From NCBI GenBank assembly GCA_902518895.1, contig CABYHL010000001.1:81038-145037 (forward strand): a DNA stretch of 64,000 bases, given 5' to 3'. This document shows, piece by piece, positions 12,365 to 64,000 of the stretch. Positions within the stretch are counted from its first letter, which is position 1. Every line of letters starts with the position of its first letter. The notes below the pieces were generated by a model. That model was not told the origin of the DNA. It saw nothing but the letters and a program-made list of their open reading frames with translations, and did not search any database. This stretch comes from an uncultured Alphaproteobacteria bacterium. GTDB lineage: Bacteria; Pseudomonadota; Alphaproteobacteria; HIMB59; GCA-002718135. A program made the translations under genes and the position numbers.

Positions 12365-12368
12365 AATA

Positions 12369-13028
12369 ATGATTAAAAATATAATTTTTGATTTTGATGG
12401 AGTAATAGTTGATAGTGAAGTGCTAGCTTCTAAAGCATTTTCAAAATATTTAAGTAAATTTGATAAATCAATTAAAGAGGAGCAATTTTATAAATATGCT
12501 GGAAAAAAAACTGTTGAAGTAATAGATTTATTATCAGCTAAATATAAGATTGAAAATAAAGAAAAATTTACAAACGAAATATATGATATTGTTTTAGAAA
12601 TTTATTCCAAGGATTTACAACTAGTTGATGGAGCAAAAGATTATATTGGTAAATCAGATAGAAATCACTTTATTGGATCTAACAGTAATAAGGATAGAAT
12701 TCTTGATGGATTGAAGCTTGTTGGATTAGATAAATTTTTTTTAAGTAATCAAGTTTACTCATTCGATATGGTTAAAAGACCAAAACCTGATCCAGATATA
12801 TACTTAAAGGTTTTAAATGACAATTCACTTAATAGAGAAGAGTCAGTCATTATTGAAGATAGTGGAGTAGGTGTTAAAGCAGCAAATGCAGCAGGAGTAA
12901 GGGTATTTGGTCTTACTGCAGGAAAACATTGGCATTCAAATAGAGATAAAAATGAATTATTTGACAATGGTGCGTTGAATGTATTTAGTGATTATGAAAG
13001 TTTAGGTAAGGCAATAGAGGAACTTTAA
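12369..13028 (+). CDS. HAD-superfamily hydrolase (beta-phosphoglucomutase/phosphatase-like)
   Basis: Motif I FDFDGVIVDSE and motif IV region IIEDSGVGVKAANAAG. ATG 12369 chosen; the track's 12285 start would overlap the previous gene by 80 nt. Confidence 0.8.
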   Translation: MIKNIIFDFDGVIVDSEVLASKAFSKYLSKFDKSIKEEQFYKYAGKKTVEVIDLLSAKYKIENKEKFTNEIYDIVLEIYSKDLQLVDGAKDYIGKSDRNHFIGSNSNKDRILDGLKLVGLDKFFLSNQVYSFDMVKRPKPDPDIYLKVLNDNSLNREESVIIEDSGVGVKAANAAGVRVFGLTAGKHWHSNRDKNELFDNGALNVFSDYESLGKAIEEL

Positions 13029-13487
13029 ATGGGACCAGATGTAAAAGGAAATCCACTTTATATTTCAGTCTATCTTTTAATAGCTTCCTATATTTTAGGT
13101 GAATTTATTTTTCCTAAATATCCACTGCTATATATTCTTAATCTTTTTGGATTATTAATTATAATTTTAATGCCAATCGTATTTTTTTCCTCAAGAAATG
13201 CATTTAATGCACATGAAGAAAAATTACCTCCCCAAACTGATACAAATAAAATTATAAAAACTGGAATATATGCTTACTCTAGAAATCCTATTTATCTATG
13301 TTTTGTTTTATTTCATTTTGGTATGTTTCTTACTTTCGAAAACATTATGTATTTCCTTTGCTCTGTAGGATTATTTTTTTGGTTAAATAATTTTGTAATA
13401 TATGAAGAGGAAAAATATTTAAAAGATAAATTTGGGGATGAATTTGAAAGATATTGTAATTCGGTTAAAAGATGGATTTTTTTCTAG
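13029..13487 (+). CDS. Isoprenylcysteine carboxyl/phospholipid methyltransferase-family membrane protein
   Basis: Hydrophobic spans plus C-terminal YSRNPIYL ... EEEKYLKDKFGDEFERY pattern typical of ICMT/PEMT-like enzymes. Confidence 0.6.
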   Translation: MGPDVKGNPLYISVYLLIASYILGEFIFPKYPLLYILNLFGLLIIILMPIVFFSSRNAFNAHEEKLPPQTDTNKIIKTGIYAYSRNPIYLCFVLFHFGMFLTFENIMYFLCSVGLFFWLNNFVIYEEEKYLKDKFGDEFERYCNSVKRWIFF

Positions 13488-14344
13488 TTAAAATTTATTG
13501 ATGAAATTTTATGATTTTTTTCAAATTTAATAACGATCTGAGCTTTTTTATTTAGATCCTTCATCATCCATTTAGTTATCTTCTCATAATGTTGAACAAA
13601 ATATTTAATTTCATTTGGAGTCATTCTTTTTGATTTTTTATTTTTTGATTGATTACTTTTTTCCTGCTTTAACCGCCATTCAAAAACATTATCAAAAGAC
13701 GATGTTTTCAAAAAAATAAGTTCATCAAATAGTTTAAATAATTTTTTATATTCTAATTTTAATTTATTATTATAGAAATTTCTCCATTGATATTTTGGAT
13801 CTTTAATTTTTTCCAAATTATTTATATTTTTATGAAGAATTTTTTTTGGAATTTCTGAACTTCCACAACACCAACCTTCTAAGAAAAGAATATCACATTT
13901 AGTTTTAATTATTTTTGTTGATTTAGTTGTGTCGTCAATCAATTTATCAAATAGAGGGGTTGTGATAGGGTATTTACTATTATTGAATTGTTTTATATCT
14001 TTAACTAATTTTTCAATATTATGTGTTCCTGGAACACCTCGAGTTATTAACAATTGATGTATTTTTTTTGAAAATTGTAATCGTTGTTTTCTTGATAAAT
14101 AGTAATTATCTAAACTAAGCAAAAGAATTTTCTTATTATAAAATTTTTCAATAGTTTTAGAGATAATATTAATAAATGATGATTTTCCAATACCCTGAGA
14201 GCCTCCAAATAGGAATTTTTTTGATTTACTAGAGCAAATATAATTTATAATTGGAATTAATTTATCTTCTATGTACTTTTTGGAATATTTTTTATTATAT
14301 GTTTTGTGTATTTCTATTTGAATATAGTCTATTAATGCACTCAT
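13484..14344 (-). CDS. P-loop kinase, D-glycerate 3-kinase (GLYK/COG4240)-like
   Basis: Walker A GGSQGIGKSS, then SLDNYYLSRKQR, RGVPGTHN and ILFLEGWCCG, matching the plant/cyanobacterial glycerate-kinase pattern. Confidence 0.6.
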   Translation of the reverse strand: MSALIDYIQIEIHKTYNKKYSKKYIEDKLIPIINYICSSKSKKFLFGGSQGIGKSSFINIISKTIEKFYNKKILLLSLDNYYLSRKQRLQFSKKIHQLLITRGVPGTHNIEKLVKDIKQFNNSKYPITTPLFDKLIDDTTKSTKIIKTKCDILFLEGWCCGSSEIPKKILHKNINNLEKIKDPKYQWRNFYNNKLKLEYKKLFKLFDELIFLKTSSFDNVFEWRLKQEKSNQSKNKKSKRMTPNEIKYFVQHYEKITKWMMKDLNKKAQIVIKFEKNHKISSINFN

Positions 14345-14376
14345 TTAATATTTATTTATAAACAAAATATTTATAC

Positions 14377-16321: not shown

Positions 16322-17401
16322 TTATTTAAATGCTTGTCCTGAACTATCAAATAATTGGCATCTTCCAGCAGGAAAACCTACTTTTACAGTATCACCAACT
16401 TTAATTTCTGAATGTCCTTCAGTTTCAGCAACTAATGGCTCTCCATCTTTTTCAAGGTATAGGTAAGTAACGTCACCAAGTTTTTCGACAACAAATACTT
16501 TACTTTCCCAAGATCCGTCTGAGTCACCATTTACCACTAAGTGTTCAGGTCTAATACCTAGAGTTACTGAATCACCCTCTGAGGAGGATGCGGAAATTTT
16601 AGAGACTGATATTTTTGACATTCCCATAATATCAACTTCTGTAGCATCAGAACTTTTGCTTAATATCTTACTAGAAATAAAGTTCATTTTTGGTGATCCA
16701 ATAAATCCACCTACGAACATATTATTCGGTCTATCATAAAGTTCTAATGGAGATCCTTTTTGTGAAACAATACCTGTATCAAGAACAACAATATCATCAG
16801 CTAAAGTCATAGCTTCTGTCTGATCATGTGTAACATAGATCATTGTTGCTTCTAGTTCATTATGAAGTTTTGCTAATTCAACTCTCATTTGAACCCTTAA
16901 TGCAGCATCAAGGTTTGAAAGCGGTTCATCAAATAAGAAAACTTTTGGCTTTCTTGTAATTGCTCTTCCAATAGCAACACGTTGTCTTTGACCACCAGAA
17001 AGTTGTTTTGGTTTTCTTTGAAGATAATCTTCTATTTGAAGAATTCTTGCTGCCTCATTAACTCTTTCATTAATTTCATCTTTTGATCTTTTTTCTAATT
17101 TCAAACCAAAAGCCATGTTATCAAATACAGTCATGTGAGGGTATAAAGCATAAGATTGAAACACCATTGCAATATTTCTTTGCTTTGGTGGTAAATCATT
17201 AACTACCTGACCATCAATTGAAATTGTACCTGAATTTATATCTTCAAGTCCTGCAATCATTCTTAACATAGTTGATTTACCACAACCACTAGGTCCAACT
17301 AGAACTGTGAATGATTGACTTTTGATATCTAGAGATACGTCTTTAATTACGTGGACATCTCCAAAATATTTATTAACAGTATTTATATTTATATCTGCCA
17401 C
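16322..17401 (-). CDS. ABC sugar transporter ATP-binding protein, MalK/UgpC type
   Basis: Walker A GPSGCGKST, signature LSGGQRQRV, Walker B FLFDEPLS, C-terminal regulatory/TOBE-like domain. GTG 17401 is preferred over the track's 17452 because AAGGAGG sits 5 nt upstream and VADININ... matches the usual MalK N-terminus. Confidence 0.88.
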   Translation of the reverse strand: MADININTVNKYFGDVHVIKDVSLDIKSQSFTVLVGPSGCGKSTMLRMIAGLEDINSGTISIDGQVVNDLPPKQRNIAMVFQSYALYPHMTVFDNMAFGLKLEKRSKDEINERVNEAARILQIEDYLQRKPKQLSGGQRQRVAIGRAITRKPKVFLFDEPLSNLDAALRVQMRVELAKLHNELEATMIYVTHDQTEAMTLADDIVVLDTGIVSQKGSPLELYDRPNNMFVGGFIGSPKMNFISSKILSKSSDATEVDIMGMSKISVSKISASSSEGDSVTLGIRPEHLVVNGDSDGSWESKVFVVEKLGDVTYLYLEKDGEPLVAETEGHSEIKVGDTVKVGFPAGRCQLFDSSGQAFK

Positions 17402-17503
17402 TTCATCCTCCTTTGAGCGATCTTTCAAGTGTATGAATACATCATCATACAAATATAAATTTATTTAACGATAATTTAAAATAAAAATCAATAGTTTTTA
17501 ATA

Positions 17504-18643
17504 CTATCCCTTAACTGATCCTGCTACTAATCCTCTTATAAAATATCTCTGAAGGGCAAAAAAGATAAATAAAGGTACTGTCATTGAAACAAACGCTCCA
17601 GTTGTCAATATTTCCCAATTTTCTCCCCTTGATCCAAGTAATTCTTTTAGTTTAGCAGTTAAAATTATTTCACTTGGAACCTGATCTAAGAATACTAGAC
17701 CTACCAATAAATCATTCCAACACCATAAAAATTGCAATATAAATATTGAAGCAAATGCAGGTATTGATAAAGGAATAATTATACGTAAAAAAATATCATA
17801 ATGAGAAGCGCCATCAACTTTAGCAGCTTCCATCATTTCATTAGGCAAGCTTTTTAAGAAATTTCTCAATAAGAAAGTAGTCGAAGCTAATCCAAAACCA
17901 GTATGCGCCATCCATACTCCAGGATATGATTTTGCTGCTACGCCAAATAATGCACCAAAATCATTATAAATTGTTAGTATTGGTATTAAAGACATTTGAA
18001 GAGGAACAACAAGAGACGCAATTATTATCGCTAAAAGAGTGTCTCTTCCATAAAACCTCATCCAAGTTAAGGAGTAGGCAAAAAAGGAACATATTATTAA
18101 TGGTATCAACGTTGAAGGTAGAGCAACAGCCATTGTGTTAACAAATGCTCTTCCAATTCCTTCTTTGAGTAAAACTTCTCTATAATTTTCAAAAGTAAAT
18201 GAAGGCGGGCTCAATGATGTAGTAAATAATCGTTTCCCTTTTTTCTTTTGAAATTCACTTTTTGATCTCCATTCATAATTTCCATTCTCATCTAGTATGA
18301 CTTCACTCTCATCTTTAAAAATAGCAATATCACCAATCTTAAATTCATTTATTTTTTTAGAATTTATACCAAAGCTTTCAATTTTTTTTCCTGAATTGTC
18401 TTCAAATAATTTTCCTTTAATTTTAAAATAACCATCTTCCTCTATTTGAGATTCCATTCCCGACATTCTGTATATTTCATTTATTTCAGTTGTAGTTAAA
18501 GCTGTCCACCAACCACTTATAGCAAGCAAATCTTTATCTCTTAAAGAGCTTATAAAGAGTCCAAAAGTTGGAATGATCCATATAATGACAAAAAACAATA
18601 ACAATAATTGTGATAAGATTGACGATAATGAAATTTTCTTCAT
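17504..18643 (-). CDS. ABC sugar transporter permease, MalG type with about 110-aa periplasmic insertion (AglG-like architecture)
   Basis: EAA loop MMEAAKVDGASHYDIFLRIIIPL. Long hydrophilic segment between the first two hydrophobic spans. Confidence 0.85.
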   Translation of the reverse strand: MKKISLSSILSQLLLLFFVIIWIIPTFGLFISSLRDKDLLAISGWWTALTTTEINEIYRMSGMESQIEEDGYFKIKGKLFEDNSGKKIESFGINSKKINEFKIGDIAIFKDESEVILDENGNYEWRSKSEFQKKKGKRLFTTSLSPPSFTFENYREVLLKEGIGRAFVNTMAVALPSTLIPLIICSFFAYSLTWMRFYGRDTLLAIIIASLVVPLQMSLIPILTIYNDFGALFGVAAKSYPGVWMAHTGFGLASTTFLLRNFLKSLPNEMMEAAKVDGASHYDIFLRIIIPLSIPAFASIFILQFLWCWNDLLVGLVFLDQVPSEIILTAKLKELLGSRGENWEILTTGAFVSMTVPLFIFFALQRYFIRGLVAGSVKG

Positions 18644-19626
18644 TATATTTTTTGCTCCTGTCTATGTTTATATAAATTCCATGCTAGGATTGGTATTACC
18701 CCAATCATAATGACAATAGCTAAAACACTACCTCTTCCAGAATCTCCACCACCTCTAAACATCCAATCGTACATTAAATTAGCTAATACTCCAGTTTGCC
18801 ATTCACCATTGGTCATAGCAAAAATAATATCAAAAATTCTGAGAACAATAATTGTGATTAGAGTCCAAATGACAAGAATTGTTTGTTCTAAATAGGGTAT
18901 AATAATTGAAAAAAATATTTTTAATTCACTTGCTCCATCAATTCTTGCTGCTTCCAGCATTTCTTTAGGTATACTTCTTAAAGCAGCACTAAAAATTACA
19001 AGAGCTAATCCAGTCTGTATCCAAATCATTATCGCCATTAAAAAAAAATTATTCCATATTGGAATTGTTAACCATGCCTGAGGTTCATAACCAAGTGAAA
19101 CTATTATTGCATTAAGTAAACCAATTTGTGTATTATCTGGTCCTCGATACTCATAAATAAATTTCCAGATAACTCCTGCTCCAACAAATGAAATTGCCAT
19201 AGGCATAAATATTATTGATTTTGCAATTGAGCCCCACCAAATTCTATCTGCTAGGTTTGCTATAACTAAACCAAAAAAAGTACTTAATGTTGGAACAACA
19301 AGCAACCAAACAAGATTATTTAAAATACTTCTTCTAAATTCGGGATCATTTACAGCCCATTTATAATTATATAGCCCAACAAATTCTCTGCCAAATTTAT
19401 CATAGAAACTTAATCTAATAGTTTCAAAAACTGGATATAAAATAAATACAAATAAAACAATAAATGCTGGAGCTATAAAAACGATAACTCTTATGGAGTT
19501 TTCAAAATTATATCTTTTTACACTTCTCCCTCCATAACTATCCAAAAGATAATTTGAGATATGAAAATAAGTGATAAAAAATAATATTCCTAAAAAAACG
19601 ATGAATAATAAATTCAGGATAGTCAT
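18643..19626 (-). CDS. ABC sugar transporter permease, MalF/UgpA type
   Basis: EAA loop MLEAARIDGASELKIFFSIIIPY. 1-nt overlap with the downstream permease. Confidence 0.88.
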   Translation of the reverse strand: MTILNLLFIVFLGILFFITYFHISNYLLDSYGGRSVKRYNFENSIRVIVFIAPAFIVLFVFILYPVFETIRLSFYDKFGREFVGLYNYKWAVNDPEFRRSILNNLVWLLVVPTLSTFFGLVIANLADRIWWGSIAKSIIFMPMAISFVGAGVIWKFIYEYRGPDNTQIGLLNAIIVSLGYEPQAWLTIPIWNNFFLMAIMIWIQTGLALVIFSAALRSIPKEMLEAARIDGASELKIFFSIIIPYLEQTILVIWTLITIIVLRIFDIIFAMTNGEWQTGVLANLMYDWMFRGGGDSGRGSVLAIVIMIGVIPILAWNLYKHRQEQKI

Positions 19627-19640
19627 TAATGATTAAATAT

Positions 19641-19680
19641 ATAAAAAAAACAGGCGAACAAGTTAATTGTCCGCCTGTTT
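19641..19680 (-). terminator. Rho-independent-type hairpin between the SBP and permease genes (intra-operon attenuator)
   Basis: Minus-strand transcript reads AACAGGCG-N14-CGCCTGTT followed by TTTTTTTT. Located 11 nt after the SBP stop. Confidence 0.65.
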
Positions 19681-19690
19681 TACGGAGTAG

Positions 19691-21001
19691 TTATTTAATT
19701 GCGTCCCAACTGTCTTGGATTGCATCAGCAACATCTTTTGCTGATTTTCCATTGGTATAATCAACCATACCAGTCCAGAAAGTTCCAGCTCCAATAGCAC
19801 CTGGCATTAAATCAGAAGCATCAAATCTAAAAGTTGTTGCTCCAGTTAATATTTCTCCAAGTTTTCTAAAAGTATCACTAGCATATTTACTGCCATCAAC
19901 ACCTTTGTGAGGAGTTAAGAAACCTCCCTTAGCCATCCAATATTCGTGTGGCTCAGGATGCATTAAGAATTTCATAAATTCTATAGTTGCAGCATTGTCA
20001 TTTGTAGCTGCTACCAATGTTCCTGCTCCTAAAACTGGAGTGCCTAAATCTTTTCCAGCAAACGCAGGAAAGTAGAAAAAGTCATAATCTACACCAGCTT
20101 CAACACCTTCAGGAAAGAATGCAGGAATAAAACTTGCCTGACGATGCATCATACACTCAGCAGGAGAAGTAAATAAACCATTTGGAGCATCTCTGAAATC
20201 AGTTGTAGCAACTGCTTTTGATCCACCATTAACATAGCTATCGTTTAGAGCTATTGAACCAAAGAAATCCATTGCTTCAAGAACTCTTGGGTCATTGAAA
20301 GGCATTTCGTTTGACACCCACATGTCATAAACATCTGGAGAATGAGTTCTAAGCATTATGTCTTCCATCCAGTCAGTAGCAGGCCAACCTGTAGCTGCTC
20401 CAGAACCTAGACCAATACACCAAGGAGTATTTCCATCTGATGCCATCTGCTCAGTTAATGCCATAAGTTCTTCCATAGATGAAGGTACTTCATAACCATT
20501 ATCTTCAAAGTTATCTGGTGAATACCAAACTAAACTTTTTACATTAGTTCTGAAGAAGATTGCATTAAATTGCTCGTTACCATTTTCATCATCGTAAGTT
20601 GATAGATCAATCCATGATTGACCAGCAGCATAATTATCTAAAACCATTTGCTTAATATCATCTCCAAGAGGAACTAATCCTCCCATAGCTGCAGCATTAG
20701 CAGCTAGACCTGGTTGTGGAAATACAACTAAGTCAGCAGCACTTCCTGCTTTTAAATCAATCATTACTTGTTGTTCAAAACTATCTGAACCACCATATTC
20801 AAAAGTAGCACCTGTGGCTTTTTCAAATATCGCACCAACTTCTCTCATTATTTCTTGTTCCGGTGATAACCAAGGGCCAAACATTACTACCTTTTGTCCA
20901 CTAAGATCTGGACCAGTATATTTGTGACCTCCAGCATGAGCTGAAAAACTAAAAACAAAAGATAAGAAACTGATTAATAAAATTTTATATAATCTTTTCA
21001 T
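19691..21001 (-). CDS. ABC sugar transporter periplasmic substrate-binding protein (family 1; alpha-glucoside/AglE-like guess)
   Basis: Signal peptide MKRLYKILLISFLSFVFSFSAHA. GGAGG Shine-Dalgarno 4 nt before the ATG. First gene of the operon. Confidence 0.85.
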   Translation of the reverse strand: MKRLYKILLISFLSFVFSFSAHAGGHKYTGPDLSGQKVVMFGPWLSPEQEIMREVGAIFEKATGATFEYGGSDSFEQQVMIDLKAGSAADLVVFPQPGLAANAAAMGGLVPLGDDIKQMVLDNYAAGQSWIDLSTYDDENGNEQFNAIFFRTNVKSLVWYSPDNFEDNGYEVPSSMEELMALTEQMASDGNTPWCIGLGSGAATGWPATDWMEDIMLRTHSPDVYDMWVSNEMPFNDPRVLEAMDFFGSIALNDSYVNGGSKAVATTDFRDAPNGLFTSPAECMMHRQASFIPAFFPEGVEAGVDYDFFYFPAFAGKDLGTPVLGAGTLVAATNDNAATIEFMKFLMHPEPHEYWMAKGGFLTPHKGVDGSKYASDTFRKLGEILTGATTFRFDASDLMPGAIGAGTFWTGMVDYTNGKSAKDVADAIQDSWDAIK

Positions 21002-21043
21002 TATTCCTCCATATTTTTAATAAGATAAAATATATAATTTCAT

Positions 21044-21070
21044 ATTTTACCAAAACGTTTTGGTTGTCAA
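21044..21070 (-). promoter_or_regulatory. Candidate sigma70-type promoter for the SBP-permease-ATPase operon
   Basis: On the minus strand: TTGACA (21070-21065), 15-nt spacer, TAAAAT (21049-21044). The spacer is almost entirely the LacI-type palindrome. Confidence 0.4.
21049..21064. promoter_or_regulatory. LacI-family operator candidate
   Basis: Perfect 16-bp palindrome ACCAAAACGTTTTGGT with central CG, lying between the divergent SBP operon and the lacI-family gene. Confidence 0.6.
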
Positions 21071-21099
21071 TTCATTATTTCTCAGTTATTCATAATTTT

Positions 21100-22119
21100 A
21101 TGAATATTAAGGGATTGGCAAAAAAATTAGATCTATCAATCACCACAGTTTCAAGAGCTCTTGGAGGATATTCAGATGTAAGCGAAAAAACTAGAGAAAG
21201 AGTAAAAAAATTTGCCGATAAATATAAATACACACCTAACCCTTATGCTAGCACTTTAGCATCAGGTAATACAAAAACAGTTGGATATGTTCTTCCAATT
21301 TACGGAGAAAATACAAGTACTTTGAATCAGGGAAATTTTTTTCTTTTTATTTCAGGTATGTCAGAAGAATTACTTTCAGAGAGTATACAACTTCAGATTT
21401 TATTTGCAAAAAGTGAGAGAGAAGAACTAACAGCTTATGAAAAACTAATAACTGAACATAAAATTAAGAATATTGTATTACAAAATATAAAGACAAATGA
21501 TAAACGTATAGAGATTCTTAATAACTACAATATAAATTTTGTAGCTTGGGGAAAAACAAAAGAAAAAAGAAACTATTCTTGGGTAGATTTAGATAATGAT
21601 AATGCAATAAAAATAATTATAAATTATTTAATCAAAAAAAATCATAGTCATATTGCTTATATAAATATTTCAGAAAAATATAATTTTGCAAATGAGCGTA
21701 AATCATCTTTTCTCAAAAATTTAAAATTAAATAATATAAAATTTAATCCAAATTACTATGCTTCAGTAAAACTGGAAGAACCAGAAAAAAGTTTTGAAGT
21801 AATAAAAAAAATGCTTAAAAAAAATAAAAAAATCTCTGCAATAATTTGTTCAACAGAATTTTCAGCATTAAGCGCAATAAAAGCATGTAATCATTTAAAT
21901 TATAAAATTGGAAAAGATATATCTATTATTACTTTTGACGGTGCTCTAGTTAAAGATTTGAGCTCACCCCCAATAACTGCTGTATCTTTTCCAGTAAAAG
22001 AATTAGGTAAAAGAGCAATAAATATTTTGCTAAATAAAGGTAAAAGTAAAAACGAATCAGATAACTATTTAGCAAAGACAGAAATCATTGAAAGAGGCTC
22101 AGTCCATATTGTAAGTTAA
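21100..22119 (+). CDS. LacI family transcriptional regulator
   Basis: N-terminal HTH MNIKGLAKKLDLSITTVSRALGG, PBP-like effector domain. ATG 21100 chosen over the track's 21064. Confidence 0.88.
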   Translation: MNIKGLAKKLDLSITTVSRALGGYSDVSEKTRERVKKFADKYKYTPNPYASTLASGNTKTVGYVLPIYGENTSTLNQGNFFLFISGMSEELLSESIQLQILFAKSEREELTAYEKLITEHKIKNIVLQNIKTNDKRIEILNNYNINFVAWGKTKEKRNYSWVDLDNDNAIKIIINYLIKKNHSHIAYINISEKYNFANERKSSFLKNLKLNNIKFNPNYYASVKLEEPEKSFEVIKKMLKKNKKISAIICSTEFSALSAIKACNHLNYKIGKDISIITFDGALVKDLSSPPITAVSFPVKELGKRAINILLNKGKSKNESDNYLAKTEIIERGSVHIVS

Positions 22120-55160: not shown

Positions 55161-56975
55161 GTGGCTAGTGATTTATTATTTTCTCTAAGAGATGTAGAAA
55201 TCAAATTTGGCAAAAAAGTTATTTTCCAAGATCTAAACTTAAATTTACACAAGGGCGATATGATTGCGCTTGTTGGCAAAAATGGTGTTGGCAAAACAAC
55301 ACTTATGAAAACTATAAATGGTGATCAAGATTTAGATGCAGGAGAATTATGGAATTATCCAAATCTAAAAGTTGGATATTTTAATCAGAAATTTGAAAAA
55401 CTAGATAACAAAACCATTGAAGAGAATTTTTCAGACTTACTTAATGAACAAAATAAACATTTTGTTGATATATTTTGCAACAAACTCAATTTAGACAAAT
55501 TTGCTCATGTTGAAGATCTTTCAGGAGGGCAAAAAAGAAAAGTTTATTTAATTCGATCTTTATTAAAAGACTCTGATGTTTTGTTATTAGATGAGCCAAC
55601 CAATCATTTAGATTTGCAATGCATCGAATGGCTAGAAAGTTATTTACGCAATTTAAATAAGACAATTATATGTGTTAGCCATGATCGAACTTTTCTCAGT
55701 AATTTTACCAATAAAGTATTTTGGATAGATAGGGGAAAATTACGAGTAAGTCCTAGTGGATTTAAAAATTTTGATAAATGGTCAGAGGAGTTACTCGATC
55801 AAGAATATAGAGAATTAAGAAATAGAAAACAATTTGTCAACATTGAACTTGAGTGGGCAAATAAAGGAGTAAAGGCGCGAGTTAAGCGAAATGAAAAAAG
55901 ATTAAAAAGAGCGAAAGAATTAAAAGCGCAATTAGAAAAAGATGAAGCTTCTTATAGAAGTGCAATTAAATCTTTAAGACCTCAAGTTTCTAAAAAATCT
56001 ACTGATCAATCTAAATTTATTGCTGAGCTCCAAGAAGTATTCGTAAAATATCCTAATCAAAGTGAATTTGTTTTTAAAAATCTATCCATAAAAATTTCAA
56101 AAAATGATCGTATTGGTCTTTTAGGTAATAATGGGAGTGGTAAATCAACTTTTCTTCGTACAATTCTTAATGAAATAAAAATTTCTAAAGGTAAAATTAA
56201 GTTGAAAAAAAATTTAGAATTTTCTTATTTTGATCAAATGCGTAATGATCTTAATGGTAGAAAATCTATTAAAGATATTTTAGTTCCCTCTGGAGGAGAC
56301 TATTTAAAGGTTCAAGGAAGAGACAGGCATGTCTGTAGCTATGTGAAAGATTTTCAGTTTGATCCTAAAAATGTTAACCATACGATACAAACATTATCGG
56401 GAGGAGAGCAAAACAGGCTACTTTTAGCAAAAGTATTAGCTAATCCCAAAACTGGACTTATATTAGATGAGCCAACAAATGATCTAGATTTAGAGACGCT
56501 AGATCTTTTAACTGAGATGTTATCAAATTATAATGGAACATTACTAATTGTATCGCATGACCGAGATTTTTTAGATCAAACTGTAAATAAGATTTTACAT
56601 TTTAAAGAGGATGGAAATGTATCATTGTTTTTTGGTGGATACAGTGATTTTTTGAAATCTGAAAATCAACAAGTAGCTAAAAATAAAGAAACTAAAAAAT
56701 CACTTACAGAAAACAATAAAGTAAAGAATTCAAAATCTAAATTATCATATAAGTTTCAATATGAATTAGAACAACTTCCAAGCCAAATAAAAAATATTCA
56801 ACAAGAATTAGAAGATATTAAAAATGAATTGAAGGATACAAATTTATATTTAGAAAATTTTGAACGATATCAAGAAATAACTTCCAAAATGGAAGTTCTG
56901 AATAGTGACCTTAATACAAAAGAGAATAGATGGTTTGAATTAATTAAAATGGAAGAAGATTTAGTTAGTAATTGA
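55161..56975 (+). CDS. ABC-F family ATPase (Uup-like, no membrane domain), GTG start
   Basis: Two NBDs (GKNGVGKTT / LSGGQKRKV; GNNGSGKST / LSGGEQNRL), charged linker and C-terminal coiled-coil-like tail. Confidence 0.88.
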   Translation: MASDLLFSLRDVEIKFGKKVIFQDLNLNLHKGDMIALVGKNGVGKTTLMKTINGDQDLDAGELWNYPNLKVGYFNQKFEKLDNKTIEENFSDLLNEQNKHFVDIFCNKLNLDKFAHVEDLSGGQKRKVYLIRSLLKDSDVLLLDEPTNHLDLQCIEWLESYLRNLNKTIICVSHDRTFLSNFTNKVFWIDRGKLRVSPSGFKNFDKWSEELLDQEYRELRNRKQFVNIELEWANKGVKARVKRNEKRLKRAKELKAQLEKDEASYRSAIKSLRPQVSKKSTDQSKFIAELQEVFVKYPNQSEFVFKNLSIKISKNDRIGLLGNNGSGKSTFLRTILNEIKISKGKIKLKKNLEFSYFDQMRNDLNGRKSIKDILVPSGGDYLKVQGRDRHVCSYVKDFQFDPKNVNHTIQTLSGGEQNRLLLAKVLANPKTGLILDEPTNDLDLETLDLLTEMLSNYNGTLLIVSHDRDFLDQTVNKILHFKEDGNVSLFFGGYSDFLKSENQQVAKNKETKKSLTENNKVKNSKSKLSYKFQYELEQLPSQIKNIQQELEDIKNELKDTNLYLENFERYQEITSKMEVLNSDLNTKENRWFELIKMEEDLVSN

Positions 56976-56982: not shown

Positions 56983-57783
56983 TTAATATGCGCTTGTATT
57001 ATCAGATTTAGTATCCACATCTTTCAATTTTTTTAATAAACTTTCAGCATGAGATGACATAATTCTGAAATCTGATAATAAACTTGTAAATTGAAATCCA
57101 ATTTCAATCATTTCTTTTAAATATTGAACCGAGCCATTATGAATACCTGCAATCTTGCCTTTATCTCTAGCTTTTTTTACAATCATTTTTATATTTGAAA
57201 AAACTGGATCCTCTTTAACATCAAACTTAGGCGGTAAACCATAAGAAGAACTCATATCTGCAGGTCCAATGTAAATACCTGTTAAATTTGGAACTGAAAG
57301 AATGGCATCTAAATTATCAACCGCTTCTTTAGTTTCAATCATTGCCAAACTTATTATATTTTTATTTGCGTGCTGATAGTAATCTGATCCATAAGCAACC
57401 TGCGCCCTCATTGGACCAAAACTTCTTTGACCAATAGGAGGATAATAACAATAAGATACAAATTTTTCGCAATCCTCTTTTGTATTTATCATTGGAGCAA
57501 TTATTCCTAATACCCCAAGGTCTAACATTTTCATTATTATACCAGGTTCACTCCATGGAACTCTTGTAAGAGGAACTGCTGTGCCATTTGCAAGTGCTTG
57601 TATCATGGAGATAGAGGTTGAGTAGTCATTTTGACCATGTTGTAAATCTATAGTCACTGAATCCCAGCCCATTTTTCCAAATGCTTCAGCTGTAAATGAA
57701 TTTGGTATAGATAACCAACCATTAATTGCAGCCTCACCGTTACTCCATATTTCAATTAATTTATTTTTCATTGCATTTAACAT
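56983..57783 (-). CDS. HpcH/HpaI family 2-keto-3-deoxy-acid aldolase
   Basis: GWDSVTIDLQHG, MIETKEAVDNLDAI, IGPADMS motifs of class II pyruvate aldolases. Confidence 0.8.
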   Translation of the reverse strand: MLNAMKNKLIEIWSNGEAAINGWLSIPNSFTAEAFGKMGWDSVTIDLQHGQNDYSTSISMIQALANGTAVPLTRVPWSEPGIIMKMLDLGVLGIIAPMINTKEDCEKFVSYCYYPPIGQRSFGPMRAQVAYGSDYYQHANKNIISLAMIETKEAVDNLDAILSVPNLTGIYIGPADMSSSYGLPPKFDVKEDPVFSNIKMIVKKARDKGKIAGIHNGSVQYLKEMIEIGFQFTSLLSDFRIMSSHAESLLKKLKDVDTKSDNTSAY

Positions 57784-57927: not shown

Positions 57928-59256
57928 ATGATGAAAACATTAGTAAGTTTTGTTTCTGCTATAATCATATCTGTATCTTTTTCTGCTTTTTCAAAAACTA
58001 AAGTTACTTGGTCAATGGAATCTAATGCGGATAGAGATCCTATATTTTTAGAAAAGTTACAAAATGCATATAATAGTGCTCAAGATAAGTATGAATTAGA
58101 AATTCAATTTGAGCCAAATGAAACACGTATAGAATCACTACGTACATCAATGCTAGCTGGAATGGGTCCTGATATTGTTGAAACACCTGGTCCTTCTTAT
58201 GTAAAAGAATATCAAGAAGCAGGCATGTTAGAAAATCTTGATTCATATGCAGCCGAATTTGGATGGAAAGATAAATTAATTCCATGGGCTTATAGTTCAG
58301 GAGTTTTTGATGGCAGTTTATATGCTATTCCTAAAACTCATGAGTCAATGGTAATGCTTTATAATAAAACTCTTTTTGAAGAAAATGGATGGAAAGTTCC
58401 AACTACACTAGAAGAATTAGAAGATGTAGCTGGAAAGATTAAAGCTAAAGGTATGGATGTTTATACATATGGTTCTTCTGGTTGGCAGCCAACCCATGAA
58501 CATTTAGTTGGAATTTATTTAAACAATTATGCTGGTCCTCAAGCTGTTTACGAAGCAATTACTGGTGAAAGAGAATGGACTGATCCAGTATTTGTTGAGG
58601 CTTTAGAACTTCTTAAAAAACATATGGTTGATGAAGGCTGGTGGTCTGGAAGTTTAGAAAACTACTATGCTATTGGCTGGGATGATTTCCATGCACAATT
58701 TGCTACTCGTGGAGCAGCTATGATGACTATTGGAACTTGGACATTCCAAGCAACAAGTTTAGGTATTGGTCAATCTGGTGATGAATGGGGCTGGGCTCCT
58801 TTACCATCTCTATCATCTAACTCAGGTGGACCAAACTTTATGATTGCAATTGGTACTACAATGTCAGTAAATGCTGCTGCAAAAAATAAAGATGGTGCAA
58901 TTGATGTTTTAAATTGGATTATGTCTAATAAAGATGTCGTAATTGATATTGCTAGTGACTTCCAATTTGGAGAGTTCGTAGTACCACTATTACTTGATGA
59001 TAGTGATATTCCTAGCACAATATCTCCTCAAGTAACTAGTTACTTAAATGAGTACGCTAGAATTACAGGAGAAGGTAATTATGGATATTGTACATGGACT
59101 TTTTGGCCAGCTGAGCCAGGAGTTCATATCTGGAAAGATATGGAAGTTGTATGGGCAGGTGATATATCTGTAGAAGACTTCATGTATGATCATCAAAAAA
59201 TGTGGGATAAGGCAAGAAAGAAAAATGAAACGTTGCCTGTTCCATTAAGAGACTAA
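57928..59256 (+). CDS. ABC sugar transporter periplasmic substrate-binding protein (family 1)
   Basis: Signal peptide MMKTLVSFVSAIIISVSFSAFS. The 16 nt AAATGGAGGAATTATG (Shine-Dalgarno through start codon) are identical to those of the SBP gene at 5488. Confidence 0.85.
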   Translation: MMKTLVSFVSAIIISVSFSAFSKTKVTWSMESNADRDPIFLEKLQNAYNSAQDKYELEIQFEPNETRIESLRTSMLAGMGPDIVETPGPSYVKEYQEAGMLENLDSYAAEFGWKDKLIPWAYSSGVFDGSLYAIPKTHESMVMLYNKTLFEENGWKVPTTLEELEDVAGKIKAKGMDVYTYGSSGWQPTHEHLVGIYLNNYAGPQAVYEAITGEREWTDPVFVEALELLKKHMVDEGWWSGSLENYYAIGWDDFHAQFATRGAAMMTIGTWTFQATSLGIGQSGDEWGWAPLPSLSSNSGGPNFMIAIGTTMSVNAAAKNKDGAIDVLNWIMSNKDVVIDIASDFQFGEFVVPLLLDDSDIPSTISPQVTSYLNEYARITGEGNYGYCTWTFWPAEPGVHIWKDMEVVWAGDISVEDFMYDHQKMWDKARKKNETLPVPLRD

Positions 59257-59266: not shown

Positions 59267-59297
59267 AAAAACGAAGCTCTTTGAGCTTCGTTTTTTT
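59267..59297 (+). terminator. Rho-independent-type terminator/attenuator between the SBP and permease genes
   Basis: ACGAAGCTC-TTT-GAGCTTCGT followed by TTTTTTT. Starts 11 nt after the SBP stop; permease genes follow 26 nt later. Confidence 0.7.
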
Positions 59298-59322: not shown

Positions 59323-60198
59323 ATGAATCTTTTATCTAAAAAAAGTTACATTGCTTGGTATTTTGTAATACCAGTAGTATTTATTCATTTATTTGTAATA
59401 GGTATTCCATCTATTTTAAGCCTTGCATTATGTCTTACCGATTGGAGTGGATTAGGTAAAATAAATTACGTCGGTTTTGAAAACTTTATAGAACTCTTTG
59501 ATGATAGATATTTTAAAAAAGCTATTTTCCATAATATTTTATGGACAATTATTTTTTTAACTGTTCCTGTTTGTATAGCACTTATGTGTGCATATTTACT
59601 TACTGGAATTAAACGTGGGCAAATGTTTTATCGTTTAGCTTTCTTTTTTCCTTATATGCTTGCAAGTGTAGTTAATTGTCAAATTTGGAAATATCTTTTC
59701 CATCCTATTCATGGATTAGGTGGTTTTTTTGAGTCTATAGGAATAGAAGCTTTAGCTTCTTCACCTTTTACTACAAAAGAAACTTCACTTTATGCTGCTG
59801 CTTTTGTGGATGGTTGGCATTTTTGGGGATTTTTAGTCGTGATATATTTAACTGGAATGTATCAAGTTGACAATCATTTATATGAAGCGGCCGATATAGA
59901 AGGTGCCAGCAAGTTTCAAAAATTTAGGTACATAACTTTACCCATGATTAGACCAATTTTTATTTTTAGTCTTATGATTATAATTATTTGGTCAGTACCC
60001 GTATTTGATTATGTTTATATTCTAACTGGAGGTGGGCCCGCATACAGTTCAGAAGTTGTTGCTAATTATCTTTATACCCATGCTTTTGTTAGATTTAATG
60101 TTGGCTATGCATCTGCAGTTGGAACTTTAATGTTTATTTATGTAATATTTATCGTTGGTATATTTGGTCTTTTAAGAAAATTAGGTTGGGAAATATAA
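59323..60198 (+). CDS. ABC sugar transporter permease, MalF/UgpA type
   Basis: EAA loop LYEAADIEGASKFQKFRYITLPM. Confidence 0.88.
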   Translation: MNLLSKKSYIAWYFVIPVVFIHLFVIGIPSILSLALCLTDWSGLGKINYVGFENFIELFDDRYFKKAIFHNILWTIIFLTVPVCIALMCAYLLTGIKRGQMFYRLAFFFPYMLASVVNCQIWKYLFHPIHGLGGFFESIGIEALASSPFTTKETSLYAAAFVDGWHFWGFLVVIYLTGMYQVDNHLYEAADIEGASKFQKFRYITLPMIRPIFIFSLMIIIIWSVPVFDYVYILTGGGPAYSSEVVANYLYTHAFVRFNVGYASAVGTLMFIYVIFIVGIFGLLRKLGWEI

Positions 60199-61035
60199 AT
60201 GTTAGTTTCAAATTTTAGAAGAAAAGAAGCAATACCAAATCATTTTATATTAATTTTATTTGCACTTTTAGCTGTACTACCAATTTTAGTTTTATTTTTT
60301 AACTCTATTAAACCTTTTAGTGAGTTTGGCTTAAATCCTCTAGGCCCTCCATCTGAAATTAGGTTACAAAATTTTCCAGATGCTTGGATAGCTGGAGAAT
60401 ATACAAAAATTTTTTTTAATTCTGCAAAACTTGTTTTTGGATCAGTCTTATTATGTCTGGCTGTTTCTTTGTTAGCTGGTTTTAGTTTAGCAAAATTAAA
60501 CCCAAAAGGATCAACTGTAATAGCAATATATTTATTAGTTGGTATTAGCATACCTGCTCAGCTTTACATACTTCCCTTGTTTCTACTTTGGAAAGAGTTA
60601 AGTTTATTAAATACACATGTTGGACTAATAATTATATATTCTGCATTAAATGCTCCTTTTGCAACATTTTTAATTAGATCTTATATGATTAGACTTCCAG
60701 ATGAATTATTTGATGCTGCAAAACTTGATGGCGCTAATACATTTCAAATTTTTTTTAGAATAGCATTACCATTATCATGGCCGGTTATATTAACTGCTGG
60801 TTTAATAATTGGATTAGCAGTTTGGAATGAATTTTTATTTGCTCTTACCTTTATCACTGATCCAAATTTTAAACCAATGGCTACAATTCTATTTTCATTT
60901 CAAGCTAGATTTGAAAATAATTATGCTTTACAGAGTGCAGCTGCTATAATGATGGTAGCTCCTATTGCAGTTTTATTCATGTTGTTCCAAAGAAGATTTA
61001 TTTCAGGATTAACAAGTGGAGGATTAAAAGAATAA
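60199..61035 (+). CDS. ABC sugar transporter permease, MalG/UgpE type
   Basis: EAA loop LFDAAKLDGANTFQIFFRIALPL. Abuts the upstream gene with no gap. Confidence 0.88.
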   Translation: MLVSNFRRKEAIPNHFILILFALLAVLPILVLFFNSIKPFSEFGLNPLGPPSEIRLQNFPDAWIAGEYTKIFFNSAKLVFGSVLLCLAVSLLAGFSLAKLNPKGSTVIAIYLLVGISIPAQLYILPLFLLWKELSLLNTHVGLIIIYSALNAPFATFLIRSYMIRLPDELFDAAKLDGANTFQIFFRIALPLSWPVILTAGLIIGLAVWNEFLFALTFITDPNFKPMATILFSFQARFENNYALQSAAAIMMVAPIAVLFMLFQRRFISGLTSGGLKE

Positions 61036-63197
61036 TGACTTTTAAATTAGATAAAAATTTTGAGGAAAAGGTGTACGCAGGTGTATTAGGTAAAATAATT
61101 GGTGTATTTCTTGGACGTCCATTTGAAGGTTGGTCTTATGAAAGAATAATGAAGGAATTGGGACCTATAAATTATTATGTAAATGAAAAATTAGATTTTC
61201 CCTTACCTGTCTCCGATGATGACATTACTGGTACATTTACCTTTTTACGTGCTTTTAGAGAGTGCAATTTTGAAAAAAATATTACTGCTAAAGATATAGG
61301 TAAAACGTGGTTAAATAATATTATTGAGGATAAAACAATTCTATGGTGGGGAGGAAAAGGACATTCAGCAGAAGACACAGCTTTTCAAAATTTAAAGCAG
61401 GGTATCGATGCACCTGATAGTGGTTCAATAAAAACTAATGGTAAGATAATTGCTGAACAAATAGGAGCTCAAATTTTTATTGATGGTTGGGCTATGGTAG
61501 CACCTGGTGATCCAGAAAGAGCAGTTCATTATGCTAAACTTGCTGCAAGTGTTAGTCATGATGGAGAGGCAATTTATGGTGCTCAAGTTGTAGCTGCTCT
61601 AGAGTCAATGGCTTTTGTCGAGAGTGATTTAGCAAAGTTAGTTGAGCAAGCTAAAAAATTTATTCCAGATGATTCCGTAATATTTAGATTAATATCTGAC
61701 ATACAAGAATGGCGATCAGGAAATTTAGGTTGGGAACAAGCAAGAGAAAAAATTGCTGAGAATTATGGATATGATAAATATTTAGGTAACTGTCATATGG
61801 TGCCCAACCATGCTTTAATTATTATGGCTTTATTATTTGGAGATGATGATTTTCAAAAAACTATGATGATTGTGAACACAGCAGGTTGGGACACAGATTG
61901 TAATTCAGGAAATGTTGGTTGTATTTTAGGAATTAAAAATGGAATAGAAGGACTAAAATCAGGTCCTGATTATTTGTCTCCTATCAATGATATTTTATAT
62001 TGCCCCTCTGCATCAGGAGGTGAAACACTTACTGACGCACTGACAGAAACTTATAAAATAATTAATACAACTAGAAAAATTAATGGTTTAGAAGAAAATT
62101 TACCTAAAAATGGAGCTAGATTTCATTTTGACATTAAAGAGTCAACACAAGGTTGGCGAACAAGAGTTGGAAATAATTTTTGTGAAACAAAAATCAGTAA
62201 TGTTGAATACAAATCTTCATTAGGAGAAAGAGGTTTAAAAATTGCATATAAAAATCTTTCAGAAGATTTAACTTCAGAAGTTTATGTAGAAACATTTTTT
62301 CCTGAGGTTATTTTAGATTTAAAAGGAAAAAAAAGAGATGATTTCTTTCATTACGATTATATTTCTTGTCCAACTATTTTTCCAGGTCAGAAAGTAACTT
62401 TGGAAATAGAAAATATATTTTCTCATGAAATCTCAATCACATTATTCTCAAAATATTGGGGTGAAAATGATAAACTCCAAAAGAATTCTTCAAATATTTT
62501 TAATTTAAGTGGAAATGAAAAAAAACAAATATCTTGGAATGTGCCTGACACTAGCTCAAACCCTATTGGTCAAATCGGCTTTAATATCGCATCAAAGGAA
62601 AAAAAAGATGGAGAAGTTGTTATTAACTACGTCAATTTTGAAGGAGAACCGAAACAAATATTTAAAAGACCTGATCACGTAGAAAATTATCAAAGAGGTA
62701 AAGAAAAAAAAGAGGGTTACTATGGTGAAATTTGGAGAAATGCATGGGTTCAATCATTAGACAAATGGGAAAAGAGAGGTAAAAATTTTAGAATTTGCCA
62801 AAATAATGGTAGGGGAATTTTATTTACTGGAACAGATATATGGAGAAATTATTCAATTGCATCAAATATTATGTTGCAGTCTAGTAACTCTGGAGGAATA
62901 GTATCAAGAGTCCAAGGTGTAAATAAATACTACACCTTTGAAATTTGTAAAGGCAACAAGTTACGCATTGGAAAGATGAATAATGATTATAAAATATTAA
63001 AAGAAGAAGAATTTGGTGTAGAATTTTTTAAAGAATATAATTTAAAAATGACAGTAATAAAAAATAAAATTATTGGACACATTAATGATAAAATTATTAT
63101 TGAAGTTGAGGATGATCATTCTCCTTTTCTTAACGGTGGAGCAGGTTTAGTTGTTGATAGCGGGACTTTAGTAACAGAACAGATAATCTTAAATTAA
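61035..63197 (+). CDS. ADP-ribosylglycohydrolase (ARH/DraG)-fold domain fused to two C-terminal beta-sandwich-like modules (720 aa)
   Basis: N-terminal ~330 aa carry ARH-family motifs (GVLGKIIGVFLGRPFEGW, SDDDITGT, AGWDTDCNSGNVG). The last ~150 aa (GGIVSRVQGVNKYYTFEI...GGAGLVVDSG) resemble a ConA/LamG-like jelly roll. TAATG overlap with the permease gene. No signal peptide. Confidence 0.7.
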   Translation: MTFKLDKNFEEKVYAGVLGKIIGVFLGRPFEGWSYERIMKELGPINYYVNEKLDFPLPVSDDDITGTFTFLRAFRECNFEKNITAKDIGKTWLNNIIEDKTILWWGGKGHSAEDTAFQNLKQGIDAPDSGSIKTNGKIIAEQIGAQIFIDGWAMVAPGDPERAVHYAKLAASVSHDGEAIYGAQVVAALESMAFVESDLAKLVEQAKKFIPDDSVIFRLISDIQEWRSGNLGWEQAREKIAENYGYDKYLGNCHMVPNHALIIMALLFGDDDFQKTMMIVNTAGWDTDCNSGNVGCILGIKNGIEGLKSGPDYLSPINDILYCPSASGGETLTDALTETYKIINTTRKINGLEENLPKNGARFHFDIKESTQGWRTRVGNNFCETKISNVEYKSSLGERGLKIAYKNLSEDLTSEVYVETFFPEVILDLKGKKRDDFFHYDYISCPTIFPGQKVTLEIENIFSHEISITLFSKYWGENDKLQKNSSNIFNLSGNEKKQISWNVPDTSSNPIGQIGFNIASKEKKDGEVVINYVNFEGEPKQIFKRPDHVENYQRGKEKKEGYYGEIWRNAWVQSLDKWEKRGKNFRICQNNGRGILFTGTDIWRNYSIASNIMLQSSNSGGIVSRVQGVNKYYTFEICKGNKLRIGKMNNDYKILKEEEFGVEFFKEYNLKMTVIKNKIIGHINDKIIIEVEDDHSPFLNGGAGLVVDSGTLVTEQIILN

Positions 63198-63200: not shown

Positions 63201-64000
63201 ATGAAATATAGAAAATTTGGCTCTCTTGATTGGAATGTATCTGAAATAGGTTTAGGCTGTTGGCAGATTGGCGCTGATTGGGGAAAGGTTAGTGAAGAGA
63301 AGGCAAATGAAGTATTACAATCATCATTTGAAAATGGAGTAAACTTTTTTGATACAGCTGATGTATATGGTGATGGTAGAAGTGAAAAATTTGTGGGAAA
63401 TTTTATAAATTCTATTTCCGAGAGAATTTATGTAGCAACAAAAGCTGGTAGACGTATTAACCCACACGTTGCAAATGGTTATTATGATAAAGATTTAATG
63501 GAGTCATTTGTAGACCGATCATTATCAAATCTAAATATTGAAACTATTGATCTTTTACAAATGCATTGTCCTCCAACAGAAGTTTATTCATCAGATAATA
63601 CTTTTGAAATGTTAGATTACTTGGTAGGTAAAGGAAAAATACAAAATTATGGGTTTAGTGTTGAAACAGTTAATCAAGCTTTAAAATGCATACAAAAACC
63701 TAATACAAAATCAATTCAAGTTATATTTAATATTTTTAGACAAAAACCTGCAGAAGAATTATTTAAAATTGCAAAAGAAAAAAAAGTAGCAATCATAGTT
63801 AGAGTTCCTCTCGCTAGTGGTTTATTATCAGGAAAATTTGATAAAAATTCTTCCTTTGCACCTGATGATCATCGAAATTATAATATCAACGGTGATGCAT
63901 TTGATGTTGGTGAAACATTCTCCGGTGTTAATTATTCAAAAGCATTGGAAGCAGTTGAAGATCTAAAAAATATTATTCCCAGTGAAATAACTCTCTCTCA
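63201..64000 (+). CDS. Aldo/keto reductase (3'-truncated by window end)
   Basis: MKYRKFGSLDWNVSEIGLGCWQIG, FFDTADVYGDGRSE. Frame stays open to nt 64000. Not in the ORF track because it lacks a stop. Confidence 0.82.
   Translation, partial: MKYRKFGSLDWNVSEIGLGCWQIGADWGKVSEEKANEVLQSSFENGVNFFDTADVYGDGRSEKFVGNFINSISERIYVATKAGRRINPHVANGYYDKDLMESFVDRSLSNLNIETIDLLQMHCPPTEVYSSDNTFEMLDYLVGKGKIQNYGFSVETVNQALKCIQKPNTKSIQVIFNIFRQKPAEELFKIAKEKKVAIIVRVPLASGLLSGKFDKNSSFAPDDHRNYNINGDAFDVGETFSGVNYSKALEAVEDLKNIIPSEITLS

Follow-up and report, generated by a model that had tools for sequence, protein, structure and literature searches.

An ADP-ribosylglycohydrolase-fold protein with two lectin-like domains in the glycosidase position of sugar-import operons: a candidate cytoplasmic glycoside hydrolase

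What does a protein with the fold of an ADP-ribosylglycohydrolase (ARH) do at the place in a sugar-import operon that is normally taken by a glycoside hydrolase (GH)? Enzymes of this fold have been described almost exclusively as removers of ADP-ribosylation. The question is raised by a gene of an uncultured alphaproteobacterium of the HIMB59 lineage, located on a stretch of 64,000 nucleotides from contig CABYHL010000001.1 (positions 81,038 to 145,037, assembly GCA_902518895.1), which is denoted the window. The gene, denoted ARH-fusion, follows the genes for a substrate-binding protein (SBP) and two permeases of an ABC importer and encodes an ARH domain joined to two beta-sandwich domains. We propose, with a probability of about 0.6, that its product is a cytoplasmic metal-dependent hydrolase that cleaves the glycosidic bond of a compound imported by the adjacent ABC system. 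The gene, its predicted domains and its motifs are listed below, with the evidence for each in parentheses.

61035..63197, + strand: ARH-fusion gene, 720 codons, ATG start (open reading frame, Pfam PF03747 and AlphaFold2 (AF2) model)
61035..62084, + strand: predicted ARH catalytic domain, residues 1-350 (Foldseek, motif alignment to MJ1187 and DraG, conservation in 60 homologues)
62112..62669, + strand: predicted middle beta-sandwich resembling a carbohydrate-binding module (CBM), residues ~360-545 (DSSP strands in the AF2 model, profile, Foldseek)
62745..63194, + strand: predicted C-terminal ConA-like/CBM66-like jelly roll, residues ~571-720 (family profile, Foldseek, Pfam GH59_C)
Motifs in the ARH domain: GRPFEGW, residues 27-33; SDDDITGT, 60-67; GWDTDCN, 284-290
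Motifs in the beta domains: FHFD, residues 363-366; INYVNFEG, 530-537; YYTFEI, 632-637; GGAGLVVDSG, 700-709

The gene is coupled to that of the second permease by a TAATG junction, in which the permease stop codon TAA (61033-61035) and the ARH-fusion start codon ATG (61035-61037) have one A in common. A GGAGGA sequence is located at 61018-61023, 12 nt upstream of the start. A sequence-only reading of the stretch had described this overlap and a product of 720 amino acids; both are seen in the sequence, and every peptide motif that it had cited was found in the translation. The G+C content of the window is about 30%.

Residues 16-308 match the Pfam family PF03747 (ADP_ribosyl_GH) over profile positions 2-285 of 287 with E=9.1e-52 (176.9 bits against a cut-off of 26.2). 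A direct phmmer search of the protein against the PDB returned nothing at E<=1, hence no solved ARH was matched, and zero NCBIfam models match the protein. We built a family profile from 60 diverse homologues with identity down to 28%; the same alignment was used for the AF2 model and for the conservation counts. This profile matched MJ1187 in the N-terminal domain and also reached DraG. In the AF2 model (pLDDT 95.2, pTM 0.95), the N-terminal domain is helical to residue ~350, and Foldseek searches against the PDB placed it with ARH3 (6g1q) and MJ1187 (1t5j) at a TM-score (TMt) of 0.72-0.77 and with DraG at 0.65-0.75. Alignment points to E31, D61-D62-D63, D286-T287-D288-C289 and N290 as the metal-site residues. 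E31 aligns to the motif-1 Glu, D62-D63 to the Asp-Asp of (S/T)DD, and D286 and D288 to the motif-3 DxD of MJ1187 and DraG. The residues E31, D61, D62, D63, D286, T287, D288 and N290 are each kept in 59-60 of the 60 homologues. Two canonical hydroxyl (Thr/Ser) metal ligands are substituted, one by D61 (59/60) and the other by C289 (Cys in 52/60, Ser in 6/60). An ARH fold with intact di-metal motifs had been proposed from the letters, and Pfam, Foldseek and the motif alignment agree with it; the acidic metal ligands were not lost on alignment.

The protein is cytoplasmic, as judged from its N-terminus. A simple pattern located the first conserved motif in 46 of the 60 homologues, and there it starts 7-21 residues into the chain, which leaves no room for a signal peptide in the family. 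The absence of a signal peptide, claimed for the window protein alone, thus extends to its relatives.

The family was found to be large. Its homologues number more than 7,900. When 1.84 billion cluster representatives (clusters at 50% identity) were searched exhaustively, 3,464 clusters matched at E<=1e-3, of which 515 had E<1e-30; in the best 150 clusters almost all matches were full-length, at ~700 amino acids. An identical copy of the protein is present in the public collection, and its 90% cluster holds 242 members, including MDC3100697.1 from a Pelagibacteraceae bacterium, from which the host was judged to be SAR11-type. The Pfam match, the number of homologues and the exact public copy show that the gene is not a chance open reading frame. 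A scan of one genome per species uncovered more than 586 ARH-fusion loci, carried by marine alphaproteobacterial single-cell genomes, many Chloroflexota, some Bacillota, Rhizobium and Bradyrhizobium, and further by Ktedonosporobacter, Anaerolinea thermolimosa and a metagenome-assembled genome labelled Klebsiella. Plasmid records with the gene come from Ensifer, Agrobacterium, Deinococcus, Enterobacter hormaechei and one haloarchaeon. Public annotation of the members stops at 'ADP-ribosylglycohydrolase family protein', and no homologue with an established unrelated function was found. Full-text literature searches returned nothing on the three-domain architecture, on ARH with CBM66 or on ARH in SAR11. 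By HMM, fold and metal motifs the protein belongs to the ARH superfamily, in which it represents a distinct, uncharacterised subfamily marked by two additional domains and changed ligands.

The genes upstream of ARH-fusion are the following.

57928..59256, + strand: CUT1-type SBP with an N-terminal hydrophobic signal-like segment (SBP_bac_1 PF01547, E=1e-25; also PF13416)
59267..59295, + strand: strong hairpin with a 13-bp stem and a T-run, directly 3' of the SBP gene and 5' of permease A (consensus match)
59323..60198, + strand: ABC permease A, MalF/UgpA-like (PF00528; NCBIfam GlcT/UgpA-like, under cut-offs)
60199..61035, + strand: ABC permease B, MalG/UgpE-like (PF00528, E=2e-20)

A family-1 SBP and two MalF/MalG-type permeases (BPD_transp_1) make up the CUT1 set; the best NCBIfam scores are to carbohydrate SBPs and to GlcT, GlcU, UgpA, UgpE, MalF and MalG, all under the equivalog cut-offs. 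The hairpin between the SBP and permease A genes probably acts within the operon as an attenuator or mRNA stabiliser, and would give an excess of SBP over permeases. In a promoter scan, sites were no more numerous than in shuffled sequence.

To determine how general this arrangement is, we called genes in the neighbourhoods of 81 loci, grouped the neighbouring genes into clusters and annotated those that recurred. Linkage was counted by tblastn in the 44 well-flanked loci, whose flanks reach 5 kb or more upstream and 3 kb or more downstream. CUT1 permeases lie within 6 kb of the ARH-fusion gene in 26 of these 44, a homologous SBP within 6 kb in 23, and a LacI-family regulator within 8 kb in 15. 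The typical order, LacI-SBP-permease-permease-ARH, was observed in Chloroflexota, Bacillota, Rhizobium, Ensifer and SAR11, with ugpC next in some. Whether homologues always stand beside CUT1 importers had been raised as a question, and the answer is that the linkage is frequent, not universal. No GH catalytic model of Pfam or NCBIfam matches any part of the protein. With this recurrent gene order, the idea that an ARH-fold protein takes the GH position of a sugar operon is upheld.

We then analyzed the two beta domains. The domain sizes given in the sequence-only reading (~330, ~200 and ~150 amino acids) fit the AF2 model, in which the protein is helical to ~350 and beta at ~360-545 and ~572-720. 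An invariant segment, RFHF..GS.QGW, precedes the middle domain, and its F365 is invariant in the 60 sequences. Residues ~394-532 of this domain have a weak profile match to an endoglucanase module (2c26, E=0.0026), and Foldseek gave 2c26 as well (TMt 0.52), with matches to tandem CBM22 also. The profile, the modelled strands and Foldseek therefore agree on the beta-sandwich assigned earlier. The C-terminal domain is more clearly placed. Residues ~555-701 match the CBM66 of Bacillus subtilis levanase (4b1m/4azz/4b1l) with a family-profile E of 3e-9 to 1e-8, and the Foldseek comparison gave TMt 0.82-0.84 and a root-mean-square deviation (rmsd) of 1.9 A over 156 columns at 17-18% identity. The sole Pfam match in the C-terminal 395 amino acids of the window protein is to the GH59_C lectin, below threshold at E=0.015; a tandem paralogue, P0102, clears this model (33.3 bits against a cut-off of 27). 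The ConA-like lectin or CBM domain predicted at this end is consistent with all three results. The pTM of 0.95 suggests a fixed arrangement in which the beta domains would be rigidly packed. The ARH domain is better kept than the beta domains, both among the paralogues (71% against 46%) and against distant members (47% against 22%). The pattern among paralogues is the one expected with conserved chemistry and varying specificity.

The paralogues are found in other SAR11-type single-cell genomes. Genomes of the window type (our loci L002-L004) have one ARH-fusion copy, and four others (L001, L005, L006 and L009) have four tandem paralogues of 719-734 amino acids between the permeases and an aldo/keto reductase gene. 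In L001 the four occupy 5592-14347 and encode 721, 734, 720 and 719 amino acids, which amounts to ~8.6 kb of a very small genome. The window protein is 54-58% identical to each of the four, and metagenomes hold other discrete types with 69-70% and 61-64% identity to it. Between the window and L001, identity is 52% for the SBP, 73% and 66% for the permeases and 85% for the HpcH-family aldolase that flanks the module. The reductase flank is 94% identical between L001 and L002, the syntenic relative of the window. As the SBP, the permeases and the ARH proteins (~55%) diverge together within a frame of 85-94% identity, the transporter and the ARH diversify as a module, much faster than its flanks. 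This argues that the binding protein and the enzyme act on the same, changing substrate.

Clues to that substrate were sought among the neighbouring enzymes. The commonest non-transporter neighbour within two genes of the ARH gene was a PfkB kinase (9 of 127 neighbours scanned), followed by Zn-dependent alcohol dehydrogenases, FGGY kinases, IU-nucleoside hydrolases, Nudix hydrolases and sulfatases. In four loci (L015, L024, L030 and L081) the PfkB kinase exceeds the NCBI ribokinase equivalog cut-off (333-373 bits against 299.65), and in two of them, L030 and L081, 8-9 nt separate the end of the ribokinase gene from the ARH gene downstream. Genomes carry one or two ribokinase genes among thousands, as a rough estimate. 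By an equally rough estimate, four such adjacencies in ~60 independent loci are far above chance. In place of a ribokinase, an L-ribulokinase equivalog occurs in three loci, and an AraA/FucI-like isomerase in two of these three and in one other; these neighbours point to a pentose. The LacI regulators score best against the RbsR, PurR and CytR models, all under the cut-offs. The suggestion that the import is a ribosyl or other glycosyl conjugate gains support from the four ribokinase loci and from the IU-nucleoside hydrolase and Nudix neighbours.

Several loci in this set had features of their own. Sulfatase genes adjoin the ARH gene or sit a few genes from it in four Chloroflexota-type loci (L066, L069, L071 and L020), and in L066 and L071 they adjoin a Zn-dependent dehydrogenase gene; sulfated glycosides may be the targets of some subfamilies. 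In two Chloroflexota loci (L024 at 12145-13911 and L015 at 12153-13475), an extra divergent ARH-domain protein is encoded directly downstream of the long cytoplasmic one. The extra protein of L024, with 589 amino acids, has an N-terminal lipoprotein-like signal (..LLLSTTLLMIGC..), which suggests an exported ARH-fold enzyme acting upstream of the importer. Such a pair would recall glycan-utilisation loci, in which the enzymes are divided into extracellular and cytoplasmic ones. On a plasmid of Ensifer sp. PDNC004 (L086), a single-domain canonical ARH of 401 amino acids with GDAIGAPVE, TDDT and GRDTDS motifs is encoded at 6755-7960. The operon there reads LacI-permease-permease-SBP-ARH-ARH-ugpC, in which the second ARH is the three-domain form (699 amino acids), and the next genes encode a CoA transferase and a CoA ester lyase. 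An aglycone pathway common to Ensifer and SAR11 was considered and dropped, as the Ensifer CoA ester lyase had no detectable similarity to the SAR11 HpcH protein (E=0.63). In Enterobacter hormaechei (CP103578.1, L083), a trio of LacI, ARH-fusion and SBP genes at 7966-12425 lies between chiP/chiQ and glnS, with no permease annotated alongside. Its surroundings look chromosomal (fur, fldA, seqA, pgm, nagE/B/A) and the record is labelled a 517-kb plasmid; the trio has a cultivable enterobacterial carrier.

The operon of the window has no ATPase gene. The features elsewhere in the window that bear on this, and the genes on either side of the operon, are listed here.

16322..17452, - strand: MalK/UgpC-type ATPase of a second CUT1 system (ABC_tran, OB_MalK and TOBE_2)
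17504-18643 and 18643-19626, - strand: permeases of the second CUT1 system
19691-21001, - strand: SBP of the second CUT1 system
21064-22119, + strand: divergent LacI regulator of the second CUT1 system
55161-56975, + strand: ABC-F type protein, 604 amino acids, two ABC domains and ABC_tran_CTD, directly upstream of the HpcH gene
56983..57783, - strand: divergent HpcH/HpaI-family aldolase (PF03328, E=1e-26; HpaI/GarL-like, under cut-offs)
63201..64000, + strand: aldo/keto reductase, AKR11/IolS-like, cut by the window end (PF00248, E=2e-50)

In Ensifer and Agrobacterium, ugpC lies directly downstream of the ARH gene. The ATPase at 16322-17452 is 48.6% identical to the UgpC encoded at this position in Ensifer, and we infer that it may be shared with the transporter of the ARH operon. 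The protein at 55161-56975 was rejected as the missing ATPase because it is a soluble ABC-F factor. The second CUT1 system is complete (16322-22119), and two sugar ABC systems with a LacI regulator in 64 kb strike us as notable for a streamlined genome of the SAR11 type.

ARH-fusion had been taken as the last gene of its operon. This did not hold, since the reductase gene begins 3 nt past the ARH stop codon. In the syntenic locus L002 the reductase gene is followed by genes for a major facilitator superfamily (MFS) transporter, a CN-hydrolase and a methyltransferase, with gaps of at most 8 nt. A reductase gene lies directly downstream of the ARH gene or genes in all SAR11-type loci that reach past them (L001-L006 and L009). 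The closest relative of the full-length reductase orthologue in L002 is IolS (1pyf), and as a clue to the substrate this generic AKR11/IolS-type enzyme was uninformative. The aldolase and reductase genes said to complete the neighbourhood are present and form a conserved frame around the variable module.

These observations suggest the following scheme. A small glycoside or oligosaccharide would enter through the periplasmic SBP and the two permeases, with energy from a MalK/UgpC-type ATPase whose gene lies elsewhere. The binuclear metal centre of the ARH domain (E31, D61/D62/D63, D286/D288/C289) would then cut a glycosidic bond of the import. As in ARH3 and DraG, by analogy, the metals would hold vicinal hydroxyls on a furanose sugar, which is most probably ribose. 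The two packed beta-sandwich domains, one of which resembles the fructofuranose-binding CBM66, are assumed to complete the substrate pocket and to set specificity. The freed sugar would pass to catabolism, via the adjacent ribokinase in several other phyla and, in SAR11, possibly via the coupled aldo/keto reductase and HpcH-type aldolase. Within this model, ribose would be the favoured product.

Several observations weigh against the scheme. About 40% of the 44 well-flanked loci have no adjacent ABC transporter. The closest solved relatives of the SBP (3vxb, 4g68 and NagB1) bind xylo- or chito-oligosaccharides, not ribosides; since these are generic oligosaccharide binders, the SBP was set aside as a clue to the substrate. 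Most of the neighbouring PfkB kinases score under the ribokinase threshold, and the SAR11 locus holds no ribokinase. The replacements at D61 and C289 may mean that the metal and the chemistry differ from those of ARH3 and DraG, and the resemblance of the C-terminal domain to CBM66 would be no certain guide to its ligand.

Among the alternatives, a nucleoside or N-riboside hydrolase that frees ribose from nucleoside-like imports survives best, although we consider it unlikely. ARH1 and DraG cleave N-ribosyl bonds. The ribokinase and IU-nucleoside hydrolase neighbours and the RbsR-, PurR- and CytR-like scores of the LacI regulators are consistent with such an activity, as is the analogous yegT-yegU-yegV architecture of E. 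coli (PMC10819704). The importer, however, is of the CUT1 type with oligosaccharide-binding relatives, and two carbohydrate-binding-like domains would be hard to account for in a nucleosidase. Dedicated nucleoside ABC importers, moreover, have a different family of binding proteins.

A genuine role in ADP-ribose processing fares less well, and we regard it as improbable. Here the protein would act on protein-ADP-ribose, O-acetyl-ADP-ribose, ADP-ribose or NAD-derived metabolites in signalling or detoxification, and its place in the operon would be incidental or regulatory, as for DraG and nitrogenase. Its clear membership of ADP_ribosyl_GH, its best structural matches (ARH3 and DraG) and the Nudix hydrolase genes at most two genes away in two loci argue for this role. 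Yet none of the loci examined showed an ADP-ribosyltransferase partner, and the protein shows no direct phmmer similarity to a solved ARH. Translational coupling to a sugar-type importer, LacI-type regulators in many phyla and as many as four paralogues in tandem, the lectin-like domains of which diverge, also speak against it, as does the lack of a defence-system match: PADLOC models gave 0 families at E<=0.01 for the protein, and a reading as anti-phage defence was dropped on this result.

We regard as highly improbable a catalytic role of the C-terminal ConA-like domain, in the manner of DUF1080/3-keto-disaccharide hydrolases (oxidative 3-keto cleavage) and with the ARH domain as an accessory. 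One of nine diverse homologues has a sub-threshold match to PF06439 (3keto-disac_hyd, E=0.007, 16.9 bits against a cut-off of 26.8), and GFO/IDH/MocA oxidoreductase genes occur in five loci. The window protein, in contrast, has no PF06439 match at E<=10, the conserved part is the ARH domain with its near-invariant metal site, and the 60-homologue alignment has few invariant residues in the C-terminal domain, the best matches of which are non-catalytic lectin or CBM modules. A non-enzymatic or sensory protein, for example one that binds sugar and regulates the transporter, or a structural ARH of the crystallin kind, would have a precedent in non-catalytic family members such as jellyfish crystallin J1 and would suit the two lectin-like domains, but acidic metal ligands kept in 59-60 of 60 homologues across phyla and a gene order that mirrors the one around sugar-operon glycosidases, with kinases downstream, make it highly improbable too.

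We return to the hydrolase and what it would mean. SAR11 is the most abundant marine heterotroph, with very small genomes and few sugar systems. The ~8.6 kb spent on four paralogues and the co-diversifying binding protein suggest an ecologically relevant and variable substrate pool in the surface ocean. If the hydrolase is real, a phylum-spanning ARH family in the glycosidase position would widen the set of glycoside-cleaving enzymes beyond CAZy and would point to a class of imported glycosides, ribosyl or related. More speculatively, and with less conviction than for hydrolysis itself, these proteins could be unrecognised ARH-fold metal-dependent glycoside hydrolases ('ribofuranosidases') with lectin-type specificity domains, which together with the exported Chloroflexota paralogues would form systems for the utilisation of ribose-glycans or ribosides; the fast-diversifying SAR11 module would then target a ribose-containing component of dissolved organic matter. 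The family should be seen as a well-supported lead that can be tested, not as a new enzyme class already demonstrated; cultivable carriers such as Rhizobium tropici, Ensifer, Enterobacter hormaechei and Anaerolinea thermolimosa make direct tests possible.

Compared with ARH3, DraG and MJ1187, the family has the same all-helical fold (TMt 0.65-0.77) and three metal-site motifs with Glu, Asp-Asp and Asp-x-Asp, and by analogy metal-assisted cleavage at C1 of a ribofuranose would be expected. It differs from them in the Thr to Asp (D61) and Thr to Cys (C289) changes, in the lack of a direct sequence match, in its invariant blocks (WWGGxGxSxE, AEQIGAQIFID, SVSHDG and PNHA) and in ~370 extra residues that form two beta-sandwiches; its genes stand in sugar-import operons and not beside ADP-ribosyltransferases. 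With the CBM66 of levanase SacC (4AZZ/4B1L/4B1M), the C-terminal ~150 residues share the ConA-like jelly roll and profile similarity, but SacC carries the module on a secreted GH32 enzyme and ARH-fusion on a cytoplasmic ARH protein. Galactocerebrosidase (GH59) is the top overall Foldseek match, over 400 columns, and also combines a beta-sandwich with a lectin tail. Its catalytic domain is a TIM barrel in place of the ARH fold, and the domain orientation differs (joint rmsd 15 A). The lectin domain of GH59 helps to build the substrate pocket, and we propose the same role for the beta domains of ARH-fusion.

Two known gene groups come close in content. In the ribose-utilisation (Rus) loci of Bacteroidetes, ARH genes lie beside ribokinases and have been proposed to free ribose from conjugates (10.1101/574913). 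In E. coli, yegT (nucleoside transporter), yegU (ARH) and yegV (PfkB kinase) form an operon without an assigned substrate (PMC10819704). Both group an ARH gene with transporter and PfkB/ribokinase genes, as the ARH-fusion loci do, but their transporters are SusC/D or MFS and not CUT1 ABC, and the three-domain ARH has not been reported for them. The classical glycosidases of CUT1 operons (GH1, GH2, GH13 and GH36) hold the same position, share the LacI regulators and are likewise cytoplasmic with accessory beta-sandwiches. To our knowledge, the ARH-fusion family is absent from every GH family in CAZy. Its fold is unrelated to those of the classical enzymes and its mechanism, by analogy with other ARH proteins, would be metal-dependent.

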